Positions 2,923-62,356 of a stretch of DNA of 64,000 bases are shown here, one piece after another. The DNA lies in assembly GCA_963832915.1 (NCBI GenBank), contig CAWHWE010000013.1, positions 1,644 to 65,643 of the forward strand, in the 5' to 3' direction. Position 1 is the first letter of the stretch. Each line of letters starts with the position of its first letter. Under the pieces are notes generated by a model. The model worked only from the letters and a program-made list of their open reading frames with translations. It was not told where the DNA came from and searched no databases. The position numbers and the translations under genes are program-made. Origin of the DNA: an uncultured Acidobacteriota bacterium (GTDB taxonomy: Bacteria; Acidobacteriota; Terriglobia; UBA7540).

Positions 2923-3549
2923 ATGAGCTTCTCGACCAAGAGTTTTTTAATGGGTCTCGGGGCAGGGGCAGCAGTGGCGTTGCTTGTTCTGGATATCTGG
3001 GGCAGGCATTACACGAATGAATATTTCCTGAGCTCGCAGCCGCGCCTGCTTCTGCCTTTTCTTCAGCAAGGTTTGGAAAACATCGTGAATTCACAAATGT
3101 CTGCGCACCTGCCGCAGCCCTGGTTGCCCGGACTCAGCAGCGGTCCGCACGACGGCTGGCAGTTGAAGAGCCTTGCCGGAAAGCCCGTAGCGCTCGGTGA
3201 CTTCAAGGGGAAGGTGGTATTTCTCGACTTTTGGGCAACGTACTGCGGCCCTTGCGTTAATGAGATGGCCGGGGTCAAGCGTCTGGCCGACTCACTCCGA
3301 AACGAGAACGTCGCCTTCCTGCTGGCCGCCCGGGATGACGAGGCGCACGTTCGAGAATTCCTCCGCAAGCACCCCATCGATTTGCCCATCTACCTCGCGA
3401 ACGGAGGTGCGCCGGACATGCCCGCCGTCCCCATCCCTGCCAACTACATCCTGGACCGGCAGGGCGTGGTCGTCTTCCAACACATTGGCGCAGCAACATG
3501 GGACACCGATAGCGCCCGAGCTTTTCTGCGCAGCCTCGAAAATCGCTAA
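2923..3549 (+). CDS. TlpA/ResA-like thiol:disulfide oxidoreductase (thioredoxin fold, membrane-anchored)
   Basis: N-terminal TM; FWATYCGPC CxxC motif; AhpC/TSA-like context (KGKVVFLDFWA). Confidence 0.8.
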   Translation: MSFSTKSFLMGLGAGAAVALLVLDIWGRHYTNEYFLSSQPRLLLPFLQQGLENIVNSQMSAHLPQPWLPGLSSGPHDGWQLKSLAGKPVALGDFKGKVVFLDFWATYCGPCVNEMAGVKRLADSLRNENVAFLLAARDDEAHVREFLRKHPIDLPIYLANGGAPDMPAVPIPANYILDRQGVVVFQHIGAATWDTDSARAFLRSLENR

Positions 3550-3586: not shown

Positions 3587-4552
3587 CTACGCTTGCTTTT
3601 CCACCTTAAGCTGGCCATGTTCGATCAGCCAGGTGAGTGACTCCCAGACAGCTTCCATCGAGCTGTAACGTGGTTGATAATCAAGCAGCTTTTGGGCCTT
3701 GGCGATGCTGCAATTCGAGCAATGAGTCAGATGGTCCCAGGTATTTTGCGCGTCTTTGGCAGAGACTGTGGCTCGGTACTCCTCCCAAGGGACAAATCGC
3801 AGCCGCGCGGGCTGCCCAAACCATGCGGCCAGAGATTCCGCGTAACCCCGCATCGTCATCGCCGCGGGCGAGACGGAATGGAAGCTCTCGCCCACAGAGG
3901 CATTCCGGTTGGCAATCGCCTTCATGAAGGCTTGCGCCACGTCGTCCGCATGAACGTGATGGAACGTCTCCAGGCCCTGGTGCGGCATCAGCAGTTCTTC
4001 TCCCCGGGCGAGTTTCCCGTACACGTCCAGGCTCCATGTGCCCAATGGGTCCAATGGCACCCAACCCGGTCCCACGATGTGACCGGGGAGCACGGAGGTT
4101 GCCGGGAAACCGTGGACCTGGGCTTCTTCGATGAGATAGGCTTCGAGTTGCGCTTTCTTGATGCCGTAGTCTCCAAACGGACGACGCGGCGAGTCCTCCG
4201 TGATGGCAGCGGTCACGGGATAGCCGTGGACCCAGATGGTACTGCAACTGAGGAAATGGCGCACCTTTCCGCGCAAGGCCTCGACCAACTGCCGGGCGGC
4301 CGCCGGATCAAAACAGATCATGTCAATGACGATGTCGGGCTTGAGCCTGCTCACGCTCAATCCGAACGTCCCTGCCGCATCCTCGGCCTGGCGGTCCATG
4401 GTGACGTGCTGCACTTTCTTCCATGCGGGATCAGGCAGGTATGGCTTGCTTCCTCCTCGGTGGATGCAAACCACCTCGTAGCTCTCGCGAATCAGTCGCG
4501 GAATGAGAAACGTACCCACATGACCCGTCCCACCAATCACCACAACGCGCAT
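3587..4552 (-). CDS. NAD(P)-dependent epimerase/dehydratase family protein (SDR, NmrA-like)
   Basis: MRVVVIGGTGHVGT Rossmann motif at the chosen start (ATG 4552); the ORF-track start at 4702 adds 50 non-conserved residues. Confidence 0.75.
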   Translation of the reverse strand: MRVVVIGGTGHVGTFLIPRLIRESYEVVCIHRGGSKPYLPDPAWKKVQHVTMDRQAEDAAGTFGLSVSRLKPDIVIDMICFDPAAARQLVEALRGKVRHFLSCSTIWVHGYPVTAAITEDSPRRPFGDYGIKKAQLEAYLIEEAQVHGFPATSVLPGHIVGPGWVPLDPLGTWSLDVYGKLARGEELLMPHQGLETFHHVHADDVAQAFMKAIANRNASVGESFHSVSPAAMTMRGYAESLAAWFGQPARLRFVPWEEYRATVSAKDAQNTWDHLTHCSNCSIAKAQKLLDYQPRYSSMEAVWESLTWLIEHGQLKVEKQA

Positions 4553-4934
4553 CGATGTCCTCCCGTTCGTTCCGGATTTCCATTTTCGTTTTCCGACCAA
4601 AAGGTAATATACAAGCGACCACCTCCGCGCGCAATGCTTCAACCCAGCGCGGCCGTTGCCCGCAACCAAGACGAGGCTCTCTGTGTCCTCCGTGCCTTTC
4701 AAGCCTTAACACAGAGCACACGGAGCATCTCAGTGATCCCGTGCCTGCGGGACTCTTCTGGCCACGGAGGACACGGGGGCACTGCTGAGAGGAGGAAAAA
4801 TCTTCGCGGCGCGAAAAGAAATTCGGGATTTGTAGTCCAGCGAGGAAGCACCGCGGACCTCCCGCCAAGGCGGGACGGAGGTTTGCGCTACGCTTGCCGG
4901 CGCCAAACCAGGACACCACCGCGACGACATGTCT

Positions 4935-4963
4935 CTTGACATTCACAAGAAGATAGGCTAGAA
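4935..4963 (+). promoter_or_regulatory. Near-consensus sigma70 promoter: TTGACA (4935-4940), 17-bp spacer, TAGAAT (4958-4963). It points into a ~640-bp ORF-free, repeat-rich region upstream of the MaoC gene.
   Basis: Hexamers and spacing read directly from the sequence. Confidence 0.5.
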
Positions 4964-5087
4964 TACTATGCTCCTTTAGGCTGAATTCAGGGTTCAGGAG
5001 CAAGGAGACGAAAAAACGATGGGCAGGAGAGGCAATTATGGATGGTGAACAGTGGATTCCCTTAGGTCTAAAAAGTGAACGAACGAC

Positions 5088-5210
5088 GCGCGAATGTCTA
5101 TGAAAACAAAGGACCGTTGTAAAACAAATGAGCGCAAAGCGGGAATGTTATAGAAAACAAATATACTTATCGGCTTAAGGCGGGAATGTTGATGAAAAGA
5201 AAGGTAGTTA
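5088..5210. repeat. GGGAATG tri-iteron element, copy A. Three sub-repeats GCG(C/G)GAATGT(C/T)(T/A)ATRGAAAAC start at 5088, 5139 and 5180 (spacing 51 and 41 bp). It is the inverted homologue of 52581-52710.
   Basis: Aligned by eye with the reverse complement of 52581-52710; sub-repeat order and spacing are conserved. Confidence 0.75.
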
Positions 5211-5415
5211 GTAGGTGGTAGGACCAAGGTGTGGGTGGAGCCGCAGCCGAACTTTAATCGTTGCCCGTAGATTTTTAACCCCGTTGGGTCTTGTAGCGCC
5301 GGTCCCGCGCAGCGGGACCGGCTCAGCCCCAATTTGCCGACCCCGCAAGGCGGGGGCCACGCCACGCCAATCTGAGCCACCACCGGATAGATGGTACTGT
5401 CCCAATTTCAGACGT

Positions 5416-5465
5416 AGCGCCGGCTTCCAGCCGGCACCGAGCCGCCAAGATGGCGGCGCTACGTT
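5416..5465. repeat. Nested-hairpin intergenic element of the GTAGCGCCG...CGGCGCTAC family (inner hairpins GCCGGCttccaGCCGGC and GCCGCCaagatGGCGGC). A second hairpin GGTCCCGCGCAGCGGGACC lies at 5301-5320.
   Basis: Palindromes read from the sequence. Confidence 0.6.
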
Positions 5466-5600
5466 CAAATTAGGACAGCACCGGAAAGATTGCCAGCTTG
5501 ATTTGAGGGCCTTCGCTGTGACAAAGTGAGAGGCCAGACTGCTTCATGCGCTGGCGCTTATAGACCGAGGAGCTCAGATTTCATCCCGGAGACTTAACCC

Positions 5601-6113
5601 GTGAATCCCAATCCCGACCCCACCAAGCACTCCGAAATCCCGATCTGGAATGCCGAGAACTGGTTTTACGAAGATTTCGAGATCGGCCACAAGATCCGCT
5701 CCATCCGGCGCACCATCTCGGAAGGCGAAAGCATGCTCTTCAACGCCCTCATCCTCGATATGCACCCTTACGTGGGCGATCAGATCTTCGCCAGCACGGA
5801 AGGGGTGTTTGGCAAACGCCTGGTTGCCGGGGCCATGGTTTTCAGCTACGGGCTGGGACTGGTGGGTACAAATTGTGTGAACGCCTTCAGCTACGGGTAT
5901 GACAAGCTGCGCTTCATACGGCCGGTCTTTATTGGCGACACCATTTACACCATTCGGACCAACCTGGAGAAACGGCCAAAGAACAAAGAGAGGGGCTTGG
6001 TCAGATCCTGTTATGAAGTCTTCAAGAACGAGGGTGAGCTGGCGCTCTATTGCGAGCACCTGCGAACTGTAAAATACCGCGACCCGTCTCGCTGGCAGGG
6101 TCAAGCGGAATAG
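5601..6113 (+). CDS. MaoC-like (R)-specific enoyl-CoA hydratase / hot-dog fold dehydratase
   Basis: 170 aa; hot-dog fold size and conserved MaoC core (…[25 protein letters not shown]…). Confidence 0.7.
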
Positions 6114-18677: not shown

Positions 18678-18884
18678 TTTTTTCACTAGCGAGACTCCCT
18701 TCCAGCAGTAGTTTGTAGTACCTTCGCGGCGCTCGAAGATTTCTCCGTGTGCTCCGTGGCCAAAAGAACCTAACACAGAGATCACTGAGACCCTCCGTGC
18801 TCTCTGTGTTTACGCTTTCCAGGCTCGGAGAACACGGAGAATTGCCTTTTGGTTGCGACCGCGGGCCGCGCTATAGAGTAATGC

Positions 18885-32668: not shown

Positions 32669-32683
32669 GACTTCCCCCCGGCA

Positions 32684-32722
32684 CTGGAAAATGAAAACTC
32701 GAAAATCGAAAATCGAAAATGG
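32684..32722. repeat. Short array of ~5 heptamers NNCGAAA (…CTCGAAAATCGAAAATCGAAAAT…), inverse orientation to the array at 34571-34661
   Basis: Read from the sequence. Confidence 0.7.
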
Positions 32723-32769
32723 AGAGTGGTTAGTCTGGCGGGTTGCTGCGCTCTTCTGACCACCCACTT

Positions 32770-33409
32770 CCAAACGCAGCGTCCTAAATAGTTGCGCATC
32801 CTTAGACGCAGTAGCCGCATTAATGGCTTTGGCCGTCGACCCGGATGCGAGCTTATTTATTGCCTCGAGTTTAGATAGCTCTATAGAAGCGGCTATTCCA
32901 ATAGTGCCACATCTGGCGTGTTGACAGGGCCATGTCATAGTGATCGTTACTCTTGTCTGTGAACCGTCTAGGTGCGCACGATCTACCGTTGTCACTGGCA
33001 TTCAACTCGCCTGCCCAGAGTCCCGCACCCGGCGCAGGATGACTTTCTTCAATAAATAGCGCCGGACAAGGAAGATCCCAATCAACGCGCCGGTGGTTCG
33101 CCATATCAAATCGTTTATGTACTCAGCGACCGAAAGCGGCATCCCCAACACATGCGCGCATAGGAAATAGCAAAAAAATGGGAATAGCATTGCTTCCACC
33201 AAGTACTGGGAAATCAACGGCACAATGATCGCCAGAGCCCAAACGCTCGCTGTAGCTGCCCTAGACAGTTTCTGACCGGACCGCTTTGCGTCCCCGGCGG
33301 AGTAGAAGGCACCTACGATAACCACCACAAACGGCACCACACTCAGAAGCTCGAACATCTTCTCCTCCCAGGTGTAAGGATACGCAACTATTTATGACGC
33401 TGCGTCTAG
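32770..33409. mobile_element. ~640-bp low-GC cassette bounded by 32-bp imperfect inverted repeats (CCAAACGCAGCGTCCTAAATAGTTGCGCATCC at 32770-32801; GGATACGCAACTATTTATGACGCTGCGTCTAG at 33378-33409, 28/32 complementary); carries one small membrane-protein ORF; MITE/cargo-like
   Basis: IRs compared by eye; the AT-rich interior contrasts with the flanks. Confidence 0.5.
33002..33358 (-). CDS. Hypothetical small membrane protein (118 aa, 3-4 TM) carried by the IR-bounded cassette
   Basis: Hydrophobic segments; lower GC; no family recognised. Confidence 0.4.
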   Translation of the reverse strand: MFELLSVVPFVVVIVGAFYSAGDAKRSGQKLSRAATASVWALAIIVPLISQYLVEAMLFPFFCYFLCAHVLGMPLSVAEYINDLIWRTTGALIGIFLVRRYLLKKVILRRVRDSGQAS

Positions 33410-34494
33410 TGTCCTGAGTCAGAAGTTCGTTTGCAAAACCTTGCGACGGCCTCCAGGATTTGGTCAGCGGTTTTGGTCCATACGAAAGGCCGGGGGTCTT
33501 GGTTATAGGTTTCCACATAATGGTGCAGAGCCGCCTCCAGTTCTTGGGTGCTGCGATGAGCGCTACGGCGCAGTTGGCGCTCCGTCAGGGTGGCGAACCA
33601 ACGCTCGACCAGATTGATCCAGGACGAACCGGTGGGAGTGAAGTGCAAATGATAGCGAGGATGGCGCACCAGCCAACGCTGAATCATCGCAGTCTTGTGC
33701 GTGCCGTAGTTATCCAGAATCAAATGCACGTCCAGGTCCGCGGGAGTGGCGGTATGGACCGTCTCCAGAAACCGGCGGAACTCGAGGGCGCGATGCCGAC
33801 GATGACACTCGCCAATGACTTTGCCGCTGGCCATCTCCAGAGCTGCAAACAGCAACGTCGTGCCGTGACGTTCGTAATCGTGAGTTCGCCGCTCGATTTG
33901 TCCGGGGCGCATCGGCAGCAGCGGTTGGGTTCGGTCCAAGGCTTGGATCTGGGCCTTTTCATCCACGCACAGCACCAAGGCTTGGTCGGGCGGGTTCAGG
34001 TAGAGTCCCACGATGTCCCGGACTTTCTCGATAAACAGTGGGTCGCGCGACAACTTGAAGGTTTCGCTGCGATGCGGCTGCAAGGCGAACGCCCGCCAGA
34101 TGCGGCTGATGGCCGTCTGGCTCATGCCGCAACGGCGTGCCAGCAGTCGCGTGCTCCAGTGCGTCGCATTGCACGGCATTGATTCCAGGGTCAGGGTCAA
34201 CACCCGTTCCACCTCCGCATCGCCGATGCGGCGCGGCGCTCCGGGGCGTGGTTCGTCCAGCAACCCCTCCAGACGCTGGACGACGAATCGTCCTCGCCAC
34301 TTGCCCACGGTGGGTTTACACACGTGCAGGGCAGCGCTCACCGCCGTGTTGTTTTTTCCCTCTGCGCAGGCCAGCACGATGCGGGCGCGCAACGCCAGGG
34401 CTTGAGCGGTTTTGCGCCGCTGCGCCCAGCCCTGCAAGGTTTCTCGCTCTTCAGCACTCAAGGTCAATTCCGGTGTAGGGCGTCCTCGTCGCAT
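33406..34494 (-). CDS. IS630-family transposase (362 aa)
   Basis: N-terminal HTH (…[42 protein letters not shown]…), DDE region (…[11 protein letters not shown]…[16 protein letters not shown]…). The stop codon is formed at the TIR/TA junction. Confidence 0.85.
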
Positions 34495-34567
34495 TGGTGT
34501 CCTCCTTCTTATAAACCCAATGCACGAGAACTTCCATTTATTAAACGAACTTCTGACTCAGGACACT
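33409..34567 (-). mobile_element. IS630-family insertion sequence (1159 bp) with perfect 24-bp TIRs GTGTCCTGAGTCAGAAGTTCGTTT / AAACGAACTTCTGACTCAGGACAC, inserted into CTAG with TA duplication (33407-33408 and 34568-34569)
   Basis: TIRs and target read from the sequence. The junctions reconstruct C-TA-[IS]-TA-G, the hallmark of IS630-family insertion. Confidence 0.85.
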
Positions 34568-34570
34568 AGT

Positions 34571-34661
34571 TTCCAGTTTCGCTTTTCGCTTTTCGAATTT
34601 CGCTTTTCGAATTTCCAGTTTCGCTTTTCGAGTTTCGATTTTCGAATTTCGAATTTCGAGT
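34571..34661. repeat. Array of 13 tandem heptamers TTTCGNN (tttccag tttcgct tttcgct tttcgaa tttcgct tttcgaa tttccag tttcgct tttcgag tttcgat tttcgaa tttcgaa tttcgag), abutting the nfeD stop codon
   Basis: Parsed by eye from the sequence. Confidence 0.8.
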
Positions 34662-34666
34662 TCCCG

Positions 34667-35227
34667 CTACTCTGCCCGTCGCACCACAACGGTCTCGCCC
34701 ACGACAGCTTCGATCTTCACCAGAGTATTGAGGGGAATCTGTTCGCCGTCTTGCGACCGGGCAATCTTCTCCACCACGCTCTCCCCAATCGTGCACCGGA
34801 CTTGTCCCACTCCAGCTCTCGGGATGGCCACGCTGACCTGGGCTATGCTCCCTGCCAGATCGCTAATCCGAATTTCGCTGGAGGCCTGCTGGCTGAAAAG
34901 GAAACTGGCGAAGAGGTAAATGATGGTCCCGAAGACCAAGCCGCCAGCCACCCCTATAACGGTGCTCACCTCCGTGCTATAACCAAGGTGGATACCAATA
35001 GCCCCGAAGCCGCCAAACGCGGTTATGAAAACACTGAGGATGCGACTGCTGAGGATGCTGACGCCCGCCTCCCCGTGCACGTCGCCGTGAAAATCCGATT
35101 CATGGCCCGCCAAGTCGCCATGCTCGAACAATTCCCCGGACACGAAACTCACCACCAGGATTAAGAACCCGATGGACGCAATACCTAGAAATACTGCAAA
35201 CGCTGAGAACCCGGCAAAGGTCAACAT
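34667..35227 (-). CDS. NfeD-like (YqiJ-type) membrane protein with a C-terminal OB-fold, partner of flotillin
   Basis: N-terminal TM helices, His-rich linker (EHGDLAGHESDFHGDVHGEAG) and C-terminal beta-rich domain typical of NfeD short forms. Same strand as, and upstream of, the flotillin gene. Confidence 0.65.
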   Translation of the reverse strand: MLTFAGFSAFAVFLGIASIGFLILVVSFVSGELFEHGDLAGHESDFHGDVHGEAGVSILSSRILSVFITAFGGFGAIGIHLGYSTEVSTVIGVAGGLVFGTIIYLFASFLFSQQASSEIRISDLAGSIAQVSVAIPRAGVGQVRCTIGESVVEKIARSQDGEQIPLNTLVKIEAVVGETVVVRRAE

Positions 35228-35396: not shown

Positions 35397-35422
35397 TCAT
35401 TCCCGCGAAAGCGGGAATGACC
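35397..35422. repeat. Perfect palindrome GTCATTCCCGC-gaaa-GCGGGAATGAC (related copies at 47401-47424 and 47463-47486; same GGGAATG core as the tri-iteron elements)
   Basis: Read from the sequence. Confidence 0.75.
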
Positions 35423-35469
35423 GGCGGTTCCCGTGGATCCCCATTCAAAACAACACCAGCGCTCTGAGA

Positions 35470-38303: not shown

Positions 38304-38534
38304 ATAAATTCCTTCTGTGAAGGAGTAAGTAGCTCGTTGTCCGTAGTCCGTCGAAAAAGGGGCTGGGGGCTAGGGCAATTCTGAATTGTGAATTCTGAAT
38401 CGTGAATTGGAGAAGCGCAGCGGTCAGAGGTCCTTGGCTCAGCGCCCAAATCAAGCTCTGAATCCCCAATTCACGATTCGCCATTCACTATGCACAATAC
38501 GCCTCACACCTGACACCCGAAACCTGCCCCTGCT

Positions 38535-47195: not shown

Positions 47196-47694
47196 CGCCG
47201 TGCGCCTTGCACTCCTCTCCCGTTGCAAATCCGATGGGGGGAAACCCCGACAAGATTCGCGACCTATAAAAAAAGTGGGCTTTCGCCCACTAAGCGCGTT
47301 CGCCATGATTAGTATAGACCTTGAAAGCGACAAATAGCAAGGCCGCCTAAAACCTGTTACTGGGGAGTCACTTGGAATGGGGATACAATCGAGCCGCTGG
47401 TCATTCCCACTAAAGCGGGAATCCAGTCAATCCACAGGAAATTTCCGAAGGTTTGCAGAGTGGATTCCCGCTTTCGCGGGAATGACCGCGTTTCGTAAGG
47501 GATTTTGGACCTTTAGGTAAGGCACAGGAGGAGTTACCGTGCCAAAATCCTTTCGTTATGCCTTGCAGGCTCTTAAAAAGGGAAACAATGCCAGCCCCTT
47601 CCTAAGTCCTCCGGTTTTGCGCTAAGATGGCGCGTCCAAGGCTGAATGGGGCGGACTCGTTCTGCCGAGCAGGTGGCAATTCAGGACCCGTCCC

Positions 47695-49522: not shown

Positions 49523-49663
49523 ATCGGCTCCATCGAGAGATTCCGGTTTCAGGTGTCAGGTTCCAGGCGCCATGGGCTCGGTGCTGGGGACCAGGGAGAG
49601 GCAGGCTACCAACGCGCAACCCCGGTTTTTGTAGCCCTCGGCTCACTGCTTGCTGCCTACTGC

Positions 49664-50764
49664 CTACTGCCTTCCGTTCTTCACGGGGGCCCGCCGCAGC
49701 GCCGACTGCATCATCAGAAACTCCCCCACGTTGTCGGTGGTGAGCATTCCAACAAGTTGGCCGTCATGGACAACCGGTAAGGAACGGGACTTACTATCGT
49801 GCAGAACCACAAGGGCGCGTTCCAGCATGTCGTGCGAGTCAACGGCTTGAAACTCACGCTTCATAGCATCGCGAACCAGGGTATCAGAACCGTGTTGAGC
49901 GATGGTACGGAATACATCTTCCCGAGAGAGCACACCCAGGACACGGTCGCCAAATACAACCGGAAAATCCTGCTGCCCCCCGGCGAGGGTATGATCGATG
50001 GCGGTCTGGAGCGGGTCGTCCGGGTTGATGGTGCGAAATTCCGTGAGCATAGCCCGCTGCACCGGGATGCCCCCGAGGGAGGCGTGCACCTGCACCATCG
50101 CGGCTTCCTGTTCAGCCCCCATCCAAACGAACAAAGCGATGAAAAGAAGGAAAGGGTCTGTAAACAGGCCCACGAAACCAAAAACATAGGCGATAGCTTG
50201 GCCGATGCGCGAGGCAAGGACCGTGGCTCGTGTGTATTCCAAGCGAGTGGCAAGAATGGCGCGCAGCACGCGCCCACCATCCATGGGGAAGGCGGGGATG
50301 AGGTTAAAGGCGAGCAACCAGAGGTTGACCACCATCAGCCTGTTCAGGAAATTTCCTCCCAACCAATGGAACGGCTGAACCTGAGGGGAAATACCGGCGA
50401 AAAGCTCCCCTGCATATAGCGCGCCCGCAATCACCGCGTTCACGGCCGGCCCCGCCAGCGCCACCCAAAGCTCCTGGATCGGCACGTCCGGCATACGCTC
50501 CAGGCGCGCCAATCCCCCGATCGGTAACAACGTAATATCGCGCGTCTGTATGCCGTACTTGCGCGCGGCCAGCGCGTGGCCCAGCTCGTGCAGCACGATG
50601 CAAGCAAAGATGACCAGTATAAACAACGTGCCCGCAAGCGCGCCCTCCATGGTGCGACCCTGATGCAAATACACGCCGAGTATGAAAAGGATGAGCAGGA
50701 CAAAGGTGGCATGCACGTACACGCCTATGCCGGCGATTGTTCCGATTCTCCAGGACCAGCGCAT
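49664..50764 (-). CDS. Site-2 protease family (M50) zinc metalloprotease with a CBS-domain pair
   Basis: HELGHALAARKYG (HExxH in a TM helix) and a C-terminal CBS-like region. Confidence 0.8.
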   Translation of the reverse strand: MRWSWRIGTIAGIGVYVHATFVLLILFILGVYLHQGRTMEGALAGTLFILVIFACIVLHELGHALAARKYGIQTRDITLLPIGGLARLERMPDVPIQELWVALAGPAVNAVIAGALYAGELFAGISPQVQPFHWLGGNFLNRLMVVNLWLLAFNLIPAFPMDGGRVLRAILATRLEYTRATVLASRIGQAIAYVFGFVGLFTDPFLLFIALFVWMGAEQEAAMVQVHASLGGIPVQRAMLTEFRTINPDDPLQTAIDHTLAGGQQDFPVVFGDRVLGVLSREDVFRTIAQHGSDTLVRDAMKREFQAVDSHDMLERALVVLHDSKSRSLPVVHDGQLVGMLTTDNVGEFLMMQSALRRAPVKNGRQ

Positions 50765-50889
50765 AATTCACTCCCCCCGCTCAGGTGCGCGCCTCGCCAA
50801 CCGTAGTGGACCAGTCTGAGCAAGAGGCGCTTGAAGCCACCACAAGCGAAGGTAACACTGCTCGCATGGCGCCTGCAAGCTTCAGCTCC

Positions 50890-51034
50890 GCCGCCCTGGT
50901 TGTAGGGGTACGGCTTGCCGTACCCTTTTCATTCTTATCGCGTGACCGTACCAAGAGGGTACGGCAAGCCGTACCCCTACAACCAGGAAGTGCCCCGCGG
51001 CCATTGTCAAGAATTGGATGTTCCAGCACACTTG
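50890..51034. repeat. MITE-like dispersed repeat, copy B (inverted relative to copy A; one end truncated), followed by the inverted repeat CCATTGTCAA...TTGACAATGG (51001-51065)
   Basis: ~90% identity to the reverse complement of 588-728. Confidence 0.8.
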
Positions 51035-51966: not shown

Positions 51967-52419
51967 TTACTTCTTGGCCGCGTCCTTCAACCTCTTGCGC
52001 AGAGAATCCAGAGCCTCCGGGGCGCGCGTCGCCATCCATTGTTCATATTTGCGCGCCAGCGTCTCCAAGCTTTTCCAGGCAAGAGGATTCTTGCGTGCCT
52101 CACGCAGGGCAGGCGCCAGGTGTTTCACCTTTTCCCAGATCAGCCAGAACTCCGCGGTGTTTTCAAAAAACAGATCCGCTTTAAGCAGGCCGTGGTTCAC
52201 AAGGGAAGCAGCCATGTCCCAATAACTTAGAGTCATGCGAAAGAACGCGTTCTCTTCCGACCCCTGGGGCAGTTGCCTGCCCAGCTCCTCAATTGAGTCG
52301 ACCTGGAATTTCTCGATCATCCACTGGCGCGCCCGGCGCAATTTCTCCTCACGGCGCAGTTCGTAAAGACGCAGCAACAGGTCGGCATCGAAATGATCCA
52401 TACTTTCTCGCACGCGCAC
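51967..52419 (-). CDS. Hypothetical protein (150 aa, helical, Lys/Arg/Glu-rich)
   Basis: Clean ORF with a GGGAGG RBS; no family recognised. Confidence 0.5.
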   Translation of the reverse strand: MRVRESMDHFDADLLLRLYELRREEKLRRARQWMIEKFQVDSIEELGRQLPQGSEENAFFRMTLSYWDMAASLVNHGLLKADLFFENTAEFWLIWEKVKHLAPALREARKNPLAWKSLETLARKYEQWMATRAPEALDSLRKRLKDAAKK

Positions 52420-52580
52420 CTCCCTAGATCGCCCCCTTGATCACTCCAATCGTCTGACCGCTTCATGTCAAAGGGCGCCAAGCCCATTATTTCGCGGGCA
52501 GCCATGATACCACGAGACCGCTGGTCGGATTCAGCGACCTAGGCAAGTAAATGCCCGAGCCTTCTGACTAACATGCTTTA

Positions 52581-52710
52581 TTTTCAACGACATTCCCACT
52601 CCTAACACGTAACTATATTTGTTTTCTATGACATTCCCGCTTTCTATCGGGCCGTGAAATTGTTGCCCTTTGTTTTCATAGACATTCCCGCGTCATTCCC
52701 TCATTTCTTA
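52581..52710. repeat. GGGAATG tri-iteron element, copy B (reverse orientation; sub-repeats at 52581-52599, 52621-52640 and 52671-52690, plus an extra GTCATTCCC at 52691-52699), ~150 bp upstream of the gene at 52419
   Basis: Aligned with copy A at 5088-5210. Confidence 0.75.
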
Positions 52711-52939
52711 GCAACCACGCTTTTCCTTCTTTCACGTACGCGGGCATGTTGTCCACATGAAACGAGCAGAGTTTTCGCGTTTTGGGCTTGGCTTGGGGCA
52801 CCTTCGGGTGTGAATCGGAGCGCCGGCGTCGCATGGCGGACAAGTGGTTCCCGAAGGCCATGACCGCGTCCATGGCCCAGACCTAGAATCCTAGCCTATC
52901 TCTCTCCACTTGTCAAGAGACACCGTGTCCGCCTCACGC

Positions 52940-54592
52940 CTATGGGGTGGCCGGGACGCTGCGCCATTCCAGGTAACTGCCGCTTTGGATGACGTCGCGT
53001 GGCAACCTCAGCGCAAACTCCCGCAGACATTGAATCAGGTGCGAAACTTCCGAAGGATCCAGCGCGTAAAACGAGACCGTATCTCCACCCGCAATGACGT
53101 TGTTTCGGATCGTCCACCGGCCCACCCGGACCCATTCCGCAGGCAGGCCGCCCTCCCCCCCTGTAAACCAAGAATCGTAAACGATCGCGACTCGCGCTCC
53201 GGCTTGTTTGGAAAGGCGGGCGATGTCCCTGGTAAGATAGTTATGCGCTCGCTTCAACACAGTTATATCGCGATTGGCCAATCCCCAGAGATCAAGGCAA
53301 TGGATATCCGCCAGAAAGTTGACCGCGCCAACGTCATTCAGCGCGACGACTGAGCCTTGGTAATACTGACGGAGGAAAGACCCCATTTGATACTGTTGTT
53401 CGAAGATGTTGGCCGTGCACTGGGGGAGAAACCAGAGCAGCCGCGTGCCTTTCACGGCCAAAGGGAAGAAGAGCAGGAGCGCCAGCGCACCGGTGGCAAG
53501 GTATTTGGGAATCGACTCGCTGCTGAAAGAGGTCCGAGGTGGGAAGTCGGGCATTATGATAGGGAATTGCGAGGCGATGAAAACAACGCCCAGCACGAAG
53601 AGATAAGCGTCGTACCGGAAGAGCGGACTGACCTGCACAAATTCCACGTGGGGAATAGCCGTCACCAGCAAAATTGCGCCCATGACTTGGCGGCTATCAA
53701 AAACCCCGCGTCCCTTCCCACAGGCCAAAACGTAAAAGAGTAGAACCGCTATCAATAGCACGAACACGTGCAGGCCCAGGTGAAGATTGACAAATGCGTT
53801 GATCGCCAGGGAGAGGAATAAACCGCTCAGGGATCTCAGGTCCGGCGTCACGCCCTTCAATAGAACGGAACTCGGAAGCCAGAACCAGCCGTGCGACACC
53901 GAGATGATCCCGTAAATGACCACGGGAAGAAATCCGCAAACCACGAATGCGAGGGCGTAAAACCACCGTTTGCGAAGAAGAAGAAGGCCGCATATGGCAA
54001 GGATCAGGAACATTCCCTCGAAACGCACGGCCGTAACCAAAGGCGCCAGCACGAGAAGCAGGGTTGAATCGCGAGCGGCGGTACTCGGCGCTTCACCGGA
54101 GAGCACGCGCGCGGCGAGAAAAGTCCCCAGCAGGGCAAGAAGTGTCTGGAGGTTTTGTTCCATTCCGGAAAGTATCAAGGCAGGAAGCGGGATCAAGAAG
54201 ATAATCGCCAGAAGCGCTGCCAACTTCAGCGCCGGCGCCAGTTTGTAATGGGTAAGGATGGCATAGGCGACCCACAAAACAAGGACCGCGAAGAGCAGAT
54301 TCCACAGCAGAGGCGCAATCTGGCTCACTCCGAACAAGTAATACGTAAAACTTAGAAGGAGTGTCCATAGTATGGAGGAGGAAGAAGAGGCGAATCCATA
54401 TCGAGTGATGCCCCAGACCCCATAGAGGGAGAAATTCCTGGCCATGGCCATGTGAATGTACGCGTCATCAAGCGCGTAAACGAGATGCCCCTGGTTCTGG
54501 TAAAAGGAAGTGGCCGAGAGCAGCCCAAATAGAAGAGAGAGAATTAGAACCGATACGTAAAGCGGCCAGTGTTGCAGCAATTTTGTTTTCAA
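52940..54592 (-). CDS. Polytopic membrane protein (~14 TM), GT-C-like (ArnT/PMT-family) glycosyltransferase candidate
   Basis: 550 aa; many TM helices; early …ALDDAYIHMAMA… loop resembles the GT-C DxD/DE catalytic loop; assignment tentative. Confidence 0.45.
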   Translation of the reverse strand: MKTKLLQHWPLYVSVLILSLLFGLLSATSFYQNQGHLVYALDDAYIHMAMARNFSLYGVWGITRYGFASSSSSILWTLLLSFTYYLFGVSQIAPLLWNLLFAVLVLWVAYAILTHYKLAPALKLAALLAIIFLIPLPALILSGMEQNLQTLLALLGTFLAARVLSGEAPSTAARDSTLLLVLAPLVTAVRFEGMFLILAICGLLLLRKRWFYALAFVVCGFLPVVIYGIISVSHGWFWLPSSVLLKGVTPDLRSLSGLFLSLAINAFVNLHLGLHVFVLLIAVLLFYVLACGKGRGVFDSRQVMGAILLVTAIPHVEFVQVSPLFRYDAYLFVLGVVFIASQFPIIMPDFPPRTSFSSESIPKYLATGALALLLFFPLAVKGTRLLWFLPQCTANIFEQQYQMGSFLRQYYQGSVVALNDVGAVNFLADIHCLDLWGLANRDITVLKRAHNYLTRDIARLSKQAGARVAIVYDSWFTGGEGGLPAEWVRVGRWTIRNNVIAGGDTVSFYALDPSEVSHLIQCLREFALRLPRDVIQSGSYLEWRSVPATP

Positions 54593-55378: not shown

Positions 55379-55669
55379 GGTCAGTAGTCAGTTCTCAGTG
55401 GTCAGTTGCCAGTAGTCCGTTGTTCGTAGTCCGTGGTCAGTCGTCCGTTCCAGCAACCGCCCCGCTCGACAGAAAGTAGCCCCCTCCCCCTTGAAGGCTG
55501 AGCGTCTCCCACACCTTTGACTGGATACCGGGGCCGAAGTGAATGAACCGCCCTCTCCCTTGGAGAGAGGGTGTCCAGCGACGGCGCTTTCTCCAGCCGT
55601 CGCCGGACGGGTGAGGGGGCATCGACCTTGCTTCGCCTCGTGCCGCCCGCTCTAGTGTAGAATACTTTC

Positions 55670-58926: not shown

Positions 58927-59249
58927 GACGGCCAGATCTCCAGTCCGACGGTACCAGACCAGATTAGGCCACTTTCAGCGACCTGTAAAGAGCCAAGTGA
59001 GCCAATGTGAGAATAGGCCAATGGGGAGAAAGTCAGGGGCTGGGTAAGAACAGTGCGCAGTTGGCAGAGCGGAAAAACGAGGGCTGGGGACGGAGGGAGG
59101 ACGGTAAGCAGTCGCCAGCCGGCAGTGGACCATAGGACCGGAAACTGGTGTTGGTAATCTGCTGTTCCCTGGTCCCCAGCCCCGAGCCCCGTTCTTGGCC
59201 GGGGCCAATTCAAAATCCAAAATCTAAAATCCAAAATTGCCCTACGCCC

Positions 59250-61985: not shown

Positions 61986-62356
61986 GCGAGAGCTGTTAGA
62001 GTCCTGTAACTGAAGTTCGTTGCATAAATGCCGTACTCTGAGAACGGCTCTACAGCCCCGATAGGGGCGGTAGAACTTAGCCCACGGCGTGAGCCTTGGG
62101 TAGGCGAGCCCTCCCTCACCCCCATCCCCTCTCCCGCCCGCGCGGGAGAGGGGTGCGGAAGGCGGGGAGTGGGTCGTCTTTCCCAGGGCTTGCGCCCTGG
62201 GCTACAATCTTCCGCCCCTGTCGGGGCTGGGAAGCGAATCCCTCGCCGGGCAGACTTCATGAATGAACTTACATTACACGACACTAGAGGATACGAATCC
62301 CTTTTTCGACCTTGGCTTTTCCACTTTCTAATTTCCAGTTTCCGAGCGGGCGGGCG

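Follow-up and report, generated by a model that had tools for sequence, protein, structure and literature searches.

What kind of element begins with an almost perfect promoter and continues for 640 bp without a credible gene? The question is raised by positions 4935 to 5600 of a 64-kb stretch of DNA (contig CAWHWE010000013.1, here called the window) from an uncultured bacterium of the Terriglobia, Acidobacteriota. A sequence-only reading had pointed out the promoter, a triple sub-repeat behind it and an inverted recurrence of this triplet at 52.6 kb. It proposed a structured non-coding RNA, a leader of the downstream MaoC/URO-D operon or a binding array for a regulator of both loci. Comparative analysis revealed that 4922-5212 (+) and 52930-52567 (-), named units A and B, are two copies, lacking an open reading frame (ORF), of a modular transcription unit that is old and dispersed and occurs in an uncultured Terriglobia clade. 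The unit is composed of a conserved sigma-70-type promoter box, a replaceable middle and an A-rich, C-poor, unstructured core of about 145 nt. A description of this unit was not found in the literature.

The core carries three copies of a 25-nt sub-repeat, GCGGGAATGT-N4-GAAAAYAAAGG, with start-to-start spacings of 51 and 41. Each motif is bipartite (GGAATGT-N4-GAAAAC), with its GAA half-sites 10 bp apart. The core of unit A lies at 5066/5067-5212 (+; profile E 2e-37), where the triplet was borne out as R1 (5088-5112), R2 (5139-5163) and R3 (5180-5204). The inverted recurrence also held, as the core of unit B occupies 52567-52712 (-; profile E 7e-32) with R1 at 52691-52667, R2 at 52640-52616 and R3 at 52599-52575; its end is 148 bp from the start of the gene 51967-52419. 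A profile built from related copies found exactly two cores in the window, in the same order and spacing and on opposite strands. Allowing up to 3 mismatches, the window has 5 occurrences of the motif where 0.5 would be expected, and all of them fall within the two cores. The core of unit A matched at least 70 loci in metagenome-assembled genomes (MAGs) of Terriglobia at 71-85% identity by BLAST. The absence of a credible ORF before 5601 was likewise confirmed: mechanical ORFs are present at 5215-5529 (+, 104 aa) and 5036-5383 (-, 115 aa), and the codon-usage gene call rejects both. Elsewhere in the window, palindromes of the form ATTCCCGCnnnnGCGGGAATGACCG (35399-35423, 47403-47427 and 47464-47488) have the string GCGGGAATG in common with the sub-repeats.

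The promoter belongs to the repeat itself, a recurrence at unit B that the earlier note had overlooked. The box of unit A (4922-4964, +) consists of the upstream half-palindrome GACGACATGTCTC, the -35 element TTGACA (4936-4941), a 17-nt spacer and the -10 element TAGAAT (4959-4964). It matches the consensus at 11 of 12 positions, and the coordinates given earlier (4935-4963) were off by one base. Transcription would be expected to start near 4971. The box of unit B (52888-52930, -) has GGACACGGTGTCTC, TTGACA (52916-52911), a 17-nt spacer and TAGGAT (52893-52888), matching 10 of the 12 positions of the consensus. Both strands taken together, the window has 4 TTGACA-N16-18-TAnnnT sites where 0.5 are expected, and two of the four are those of units A and B. 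The 35-bp box TGTCTCTTGACA-N11-ATAGGCTAGRAT has just two occurrences, 4930-4964 (+) and 52922-52888 (-), where chance predicts 0. Among related cores with full flanks, 53 of 68 have TTGACA-N16-18-TAnnnT on the same strand within 500 nt upstream, and the other 15 are ORF-carrying or tandem copies. The sequence GGAC(A/T)-N3-TGTCTC usually precedes the promoter of related cores. The promoter of the unit is very probably real. The 421-aa ORF at 3674-4939 (+) is probably a shadow of the opposite-strand epimerase gene.

The middle is the part in which the two window copies differ. The spacer between box and core is 104 nt in unit A and 177 nt in unit B, and the two are not homologous. That of unit A (4965-5066, +) is short and variable with heptamer-like motifs, GAATTCAGGGTTCAGGAG and ATGGTGAACAGTG, and resembles the heptamer-rich middles of L002, L034, L088 and L098 (L-numbers denote retrieved loci and P-numbers protein homologues). 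That of unit B (52713-52887, -), termed subfamily 1, contains the near-palindrome GGACAACATGCCC about 45 nt before the core, and its profile found 16 full-length relatives among the fetched loci. Several alternative modules occur between promoter and core, and homology within a type rises toward the core. Near-palindromes of the form GGACA-N3-TGTC adjoin the -35 element and also stand about 45 nt ahead of the core. Whether the subfamily-1 middle encodes a conserved peptide was considered; the idea was rejected, as by eye the ATG is not conserved.

The distribution of the motif was studied by a scan of one genome per species with an exact pattern of two motifs 15-45 nt apart. At least 116 loci were found. 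Unrelated tandem repeats, in Paenibacillus and some others, account for part of the matches listed; the remainder come from a handful of Terriglobia MAGs. MFD01299.bin.2.212 and SPRUCE 586 have at least 15 loci each, SPRUCE 387 at least 12, MFD02755 at least 11, SPRUCE 281 at least 10 and SPRUCE 311 at least 7, all of them lower bounds because the pattern required exact matches. More divergent versions were found in other Acidobacteriota MAGs, including one of the Bryobacterales. Across the related copies the 51/41 spacing is constant, and the conserved core extends from TTTAAAAAnTGAAcGAACGA through R3 to GTTAG over about 145-165 nt, with near-invariant motifs and spacers that are 35-60% conserved. 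Most of the 8-kb loci hold a single copy in a single orientation. The copies are almost always intergenic, overlap with a called gene being restricted to five ORF-related cases. The spacer between R1 and R2 has two main types, one with CTGTGGAAAA (for example in L033, L043 and L074) and one with its reverse complement TTTCCACAG (for example in L111 and L114). On the opposite strand CTGTGGAAAA fits the relaxed DnaA-box TTWTNCACA. The DnaA-box-like TTTTCCACA in this spacer was dropped as a candidate, as it is found in many copies in either orientation and inconsistently. The unit-containing loci gave 5 tRNA hits in 133 kb, which is above typical tRNA density, and units in L034 (tRNA at 3175-3248), L114 (7323-7409), L091 (1579-1652), L002, L043 and L106 have a tRNA gene no more than a few hundred bases away.

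Such a distribution bears directly on the readings that tie the element to its neighbours. A regulator of just the two window loci is not supported, as several MAGs each have the unit at between 7 and at least 15 loci. The idea of a binding array stood in part, as near-invariant motifs, variable spacers and fixed spacing agree with it, but it is not limited to two loci. The units are neighboured in the window by epimerase, MaoC and DUF4760 genes; the promoter of unit A faces MaoC and that of unit B faces DUF4760 with no gene between, as a leader would. In spite of this, MaoC homologues in three other genomes (L131, L132 and L133, 82-91% identity) have neither core nor promoter box and have different neighbours. 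The genes downstream of the copies are unrelated to each other. According to gene calls from a home-made codon-usage caller, the downstream gene is co-oriented in 46 of 76 copies and opposed in 30, so that 40% of the copies face a convergent gene; on the upstream side, 42 copies have a divergent gene and 24 a co-oriented one. Finally, in GCA_052139915.1 (L118), a strain 99.9% identical to the window from 5070 on, the 3' end of an insertion sequence (IS) transposase gene abuts the core at 5069/5070 and splits promoter from core. The proposed MaoC/URO-D leader is not supported by these comparisons. The unit recurs across the genomes of some uncultured Acidobacteria from soil, and so it is not a control region specific to the neighbouring operon. 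Locus-specific readings as a whole, the structured RNA discussed below included, are largely refuted by the comparative data and are left as very improbable.

Two observations were made at these loci. In L118 (1-126) the IS transposase gene ends with ...AYGFRTFRAAEIALYHTLGALPEPEATHKFC and a stop, followed by ...GAAGAACC, which abuts the core of unit A. In SPRUCE 424 (L025) an IS of the same type stops about 100 nt short of a core-like element, which may reflect target preference or coincidence (n=2). Upstream of the MaoC homologue of MFD01299 (L131, 2400-2450), AGGATTC heptamer repeats separate TTGACA from a TATACT downstream; the arrangement resembles a promoter with a period-7 array as spacer, of which the length could vary.

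The predicted transcript of the unit shows no sign of being a structured RNA. A search of 4227 Rfam families over the whole window at the gathering threshold gave only Acido-Lenti-1 at 62 kb, the region 4800-5700 gave only noise at E up to 10, and 18 related loci gave only tRNAs and Acido-Lenti-1. RNAalifold predicted 0 pairs in 79 aligned cores, and the core lacks self-complementarity. For 16 subfamily-1 middles the signal was weak (-4.5 kcal/mol), with compensatory changes in 3 of 11 predicted pairs; two local G+C-rich hairpins seen by eye were not counted as covariation because their register shifts between copies. The inferred transcripts A and B fold worse than dinucleotide shuffles (z of +1.74 and +1.32). 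A structured non-coding RNA, as had been proposed, is thus not indicated by any of these analyses. The promoter-sense strand of the core has a marked composition, with 36-41% A and 12-14% C (41% and 13% in the core of unit A) compared with 21% and 29% in the window. Each motif also resembles a translation-initiation region, with GGGAA, 5-6 nt, an NTG and an A-tract. The NTG before GAAAA is present in 77 of 78 R1 and 72 of 78 R3 copies, while R2 is split between TAG and ATG. A sigma-54 promoter 3' of the core was dropped, a loose match being seen by eye in B only and none in A.

A longer version of the unit carries a gene. In L072, L031, L062, L105 and L120-L128 the promoter box is followed by a 5' untranslated region with AGGAGG, an ATG, an ORF of 390-440 aa and the core. 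The ORF extends into R1, where it reads ..KMNEQCGNVxENKG. Units A and B lack this ORF. The encoded protein carries STGPR..GK..NALKHG, a basic motif at its N-terminus, has a disordered tail and is predicted to be a helical bundle or coiled coil of an uncharacterised family. It has at least 875 close relatives, every one annotated as hypothetical and coming from Terriglobia or metagenomes, and a profile search found 698 cluster representatives at E <=1e-10. No match to the protein was found in Pfam, NCBIfam, PADLOC or PHROG, and structural matches were generic coiled-coil or helical-bundle ones only; for this reason no sign of a transposase, recombinase or nuclease is seen in it. The 550-aa ORF at 52940-54592 (-), upstream of unit B, scores as coding by codon usage and also has no match in Pfam, NCBIfam, PADLOC or PHROG.

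Comparison of the copies shows that the motif is maintained as nucleic acid and not as peptide or helix, and that it is constrained where it is sited. Past R1 the reading frame varies among close homologues, R2 being read as SGNVIENK in P0001 and P0019 and as GEAGMSMKT in P0004 and P0047. Homologues at 25-35% protein identity retain one ATGTnGTTGAAAAnAAAG module with GTTAAAAnTG..CGAA before it, and the single module is therefore old and the triplication specific to the clade of the window. In L129 and L130 a 2-nt indel shifts the frame of the ATGTnGTTGAAAAnAAAG module, which is read as VVENKG or MSLKTK. A small protein encoded in the core was rejected, as the R1-R2 frame is open in some copies but interrupted at differing points (2 to 137 codons) in others, and both window cores have early stops in the frame through the core. 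Several copies of the unit are orthologous between MAGs. Between such orthologues, identity is 90% (227/252) at the constant positions of the motif, 68% in the spacers and 69-74% in the flanks; these figures count one pair twice, and without the duplicate motif and spacer stand at about 90% and 67%. Unit B has its orthologue in SPRUCE 311 (L027), in a syntenic block at 81-89% identity, and in their alignment the sub-repeats are kept and the spacers diverged by eye. This difference between motif and spacer points to selection, or biased gene conversion, acting on the motifs in situ.

The possibility has to be considered that the copies are decaying remnants of a selfish or mobile element. An autonomous unit of 1.4 kb would have spread in the past, the window copies would be functionless internal-deletion derivatives, and the conservation of the motif would reflect past needs of mobilisation or gene conversion. 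Several features are consistent with such a history: the presence of many copies in a genome, conserved at their ends and variable inside, L097 and L005 in which only the first ~40 codons and the core are retained, about 200 truncated ORF fragments, some of them on long contigs, the location of copies in variable regions and near tRNA genes, and the IS ends which abut cores in L118 and L025. Other findings speak against it. Copies at different loci are at best 75-87% identical, which means no recent transposition. Homology begins about 30-50 bp upstream of the -35 element and ends about 20 nt past R3, the two ends being unrelated to each other, and neither terminal inverted repeats nor target-site duplications were seen at the copies examined. 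The search for empty sites at syntenic loci gave indels beside units (L036 against L083 and L081 against L088) and no clean presence or absence. The marks of a miniature inverted-repeat transposable element or an IS derivative (inverted repeats with duplication, a transposase or recombinase partner, near-identical copies) were not found, and no fold of a transposase or recombinase is seen for the ORF. The viral contigs searched hold no member of the family; in IMG/VR the protein has no relative, and two pattern hits there are unrelated AT-rich duplications, so a viral origin was rejected. The copies kept at orthologous loci show motif-specific constraint, which makes a functionless relic less likely, and we regard the remnant explanation as improbable. 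With respect to the sequence-only reading, which had named a degenerate mobile element in dozens of copies as part of its refutation, the triplet does lie within a larger multi-copy repeat, but no evidence for a degenerate mobile element was obtained and its position is non-random. A further candidate, a composite transposon with the inverted window copies as its ends, was also rejected, because copies are solitary elsewhere and the interval is ordinary DNA; the 47 kb between them contains metabolic genes, with uniform G+C and piecewise synteny with other MAGs.

The best explanation of the unit, to which we lean with some reservation, is a self-promoted transcript with a single-stranded tail that offers three binding sites to a conserved factor. 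The unit would be transcribed from its own promoter, and the three motifs in the A-rich tail would form a multivalent binding platform serving as tag or sponge. In the motif, GGGAA looks like a Shine-Dalgarno sequence and is followed after 5-6 nt by a start-like NTG and the A-tract. Candidate partners may be an RNA-binding component of the host (the 30S subunit or S1, Hfq, a CsrA-like protein) or the protein of the unit itself. An RNA platform is favoured because of the strand asymmetry, the worse-than-random folding and the invariant orientation behind a conserved promoter, and because the motif is at the 3' end of the mRNA in the full-length version.

Some points weigh against a transcript of this kind. 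Transcription, its start and its 3' end are all what we infer from the sequence, and no intrinsic terminator was found 3' of either window core. Short contigs end at repeat boundaries or at the -10 box, and because of this coincidence they are uninformative on transcript ends. The fixed orientation of core and promoter could be due to common descent rather than function, and gene conversion among copies may aid the conservation of the motif. The context of GGA misfits the CsrA consensus beyond GGA itself, and the motifs are outside hairpin loops. In addition, the distances of 51 and 41 bp correspond to 5 and 4 helical turns and fit an array of DNA-bound protein equally well.

The last point leads to the main rival, an array acting at the DNA level, in which a protein would bind cooperatively to the three 25-bp direct repeats in double-stranded form. 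This binder may be a nucleoid-associated protein, a regulator or the helical protein of the unit, and the array, placed downstream of the promoter, would be a roadblock, an insulator or an architectural element. The maintenance of the spacing while the spacer sequence varies, the bipartite motif with half-sites 10 bp apart, the near-palindromes by the -35 element and before the core, and the lack of both a terminator and RNA structure would all suit it. Against this, the A-rich, C-poor asymmetry and the poor folding look like selection on a single strand, the motif is never found alone near other promoters in the 64 kb, its orientation relative to the promoter is invariant, and the protein model has no recognisable DNA-binding fold. 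We consider the DNA-level array unlikely, though the strongest of the alternatives.

Comparison with known systems showed partial likeness to several of them. Like pneumococcal BOX, enterobacterial REP/BIME and ERIC and neisserial Correia elements, the unit is dispersed, intergenic, modular and of many copies, and some of these families (Correia) carry promoter activity as well. In contrast to all of these, its core is non-palindromic with no hairpin and no inverted ends, it has a complete sigma-70 promoter, three direct repeats and an ORF-carrying version, and its copies are old and constrained. With iteron and centromere arrays (plasmid origins, ParR-parC) it shares direct repeats of about 20-25 bp in helical phase beside a promoter, but differs in having many chromosomal copies, no adjacent rep or par gene, strand asymmetry and a motif in the 3' end of a gene. 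The unit would resemble the protein-sponge small RNAs CsrB, RsmY and RsmZ in its own promoter, several purine-rich GGA motifs (about six GGA in the consensus core, counted by eye and not scripted) and no coding function, whereas its motifs lie outside hairpin loops, a terminator was not seen and there are far more genes per genome. The Tn7-L and Mu L1-L3 ends are similar in that the core holds three TGT-containing sites of about 22-25 bp within about 150 bp and the window copies are inverted; unlike those ends, the copies are solitary elsewhere, with no transposase, target duplication or recent copies, and the interval is ordinary chromosome. As in the pairing of short and long interspersed nuclear elements (SINE/LINE), the ORF-less copies have the promoter and 3' tail of the ORF-carrying unit and homology rises toward the 3' end, but there is no reverse transcriptase, and the promoter is upstream of the transcript and so would not be copied via RNA.

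A broader proposal is put forward tentatively and with less confidence than the binding transcript: an undescribed Terriglobia system may exist in which genes of a very large helical-protein family with a deeply conserved 3' cis motif are accompanied, in this clade, by numerous self-promoted ORF-less transcripts that bear the motif in triplicate and serve as decoy, sponge or tag for one shared binding partner. If true, this could be a regulatory or ribonucleoprotein network not seen before, or a novel kind of selfish element in which no transposase can be recognised. Few bacteria are as abundant in soil as the Acidobacteria, yet to our knowledge almost nothing is known of their non-coding DNA. 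The strong promoter, the motif kept as nucleic acid and the constrained ORF-less copies point to a real interaction between the motif and a partner rather than junk DNA, and the motif is linked to a protein family with thousands of uncharacterised members. Units of this type will seed false calls of regulatory regions or iterons and will also cause assemblies of these genomes to break.

Beyond the unit, the 640-bp ORF-free stretch is a mosaic of other repeat families. Stable hairpins had been reported 3' of the core; they are present at 5293-5330 and 5414-5462 but belong to separate repeat families and are not part of the unit. The region 5293-5482 holds GTAG-tagged REP-like palindromes (GTAGCGCCGGTCCCGCGCAGCGGGACCGGC and GTAGCGCCGG...GGCGGCGCTAC). 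Its part 5393-5482 is 91-92% identical to L033 and L041, 5318-5385 matches L013, and GTAGCGCNG has 6 occurrences in the window. The GTAG tag is a hallmark of REPs (PMC3733652), and these palindromes, as families separate from the unit, are of the REP type. On the other side of unit A, 4645-4817 is a separate dispersed repeat with an inverted copy at 18743-18872 and matches of 75-85% by BLAST in L058, L085 and L107. Another family is seen in the 148-nt inverted pair 586-733 and 50885-51032 (89% complementary), of which each arm forms a hairpin with a perfect stem of 30-35 nt (CCTGGTTGTAGGGGTACGGCTTGCCGTACCC...).

Tandem arrays of 7 nt with varied unit sequences are common in the intergenic DNA, often as inverted pairs that could form long hairpins. 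In the window they were found at 32687-32720, 34577-34659, 38377-38408, 49645-49672, 55380-55445 and 59207-59237, and in related loci they are often located directly before the promoter box and after R3 of units. An IS at 33406-34569, bounded by perfect 27-bp terminal inverted repeats and carrying a 362-aa ORF (-), is situated inside the loop of a long hairpin of period-7 arrays (with 32680-32729 and 34554-34672), and L107 from SPRUCE 586 has the same hairpin without this insertion. The Acido-Lenti-1 motifs of the window (RF01687; 42.9 and 46.1 bits) face each other at 62054-62100 (-) and 62182-62228 (+). L031 and L075 have the same pair and L043 has one motif; each of these loci also holds a unit.

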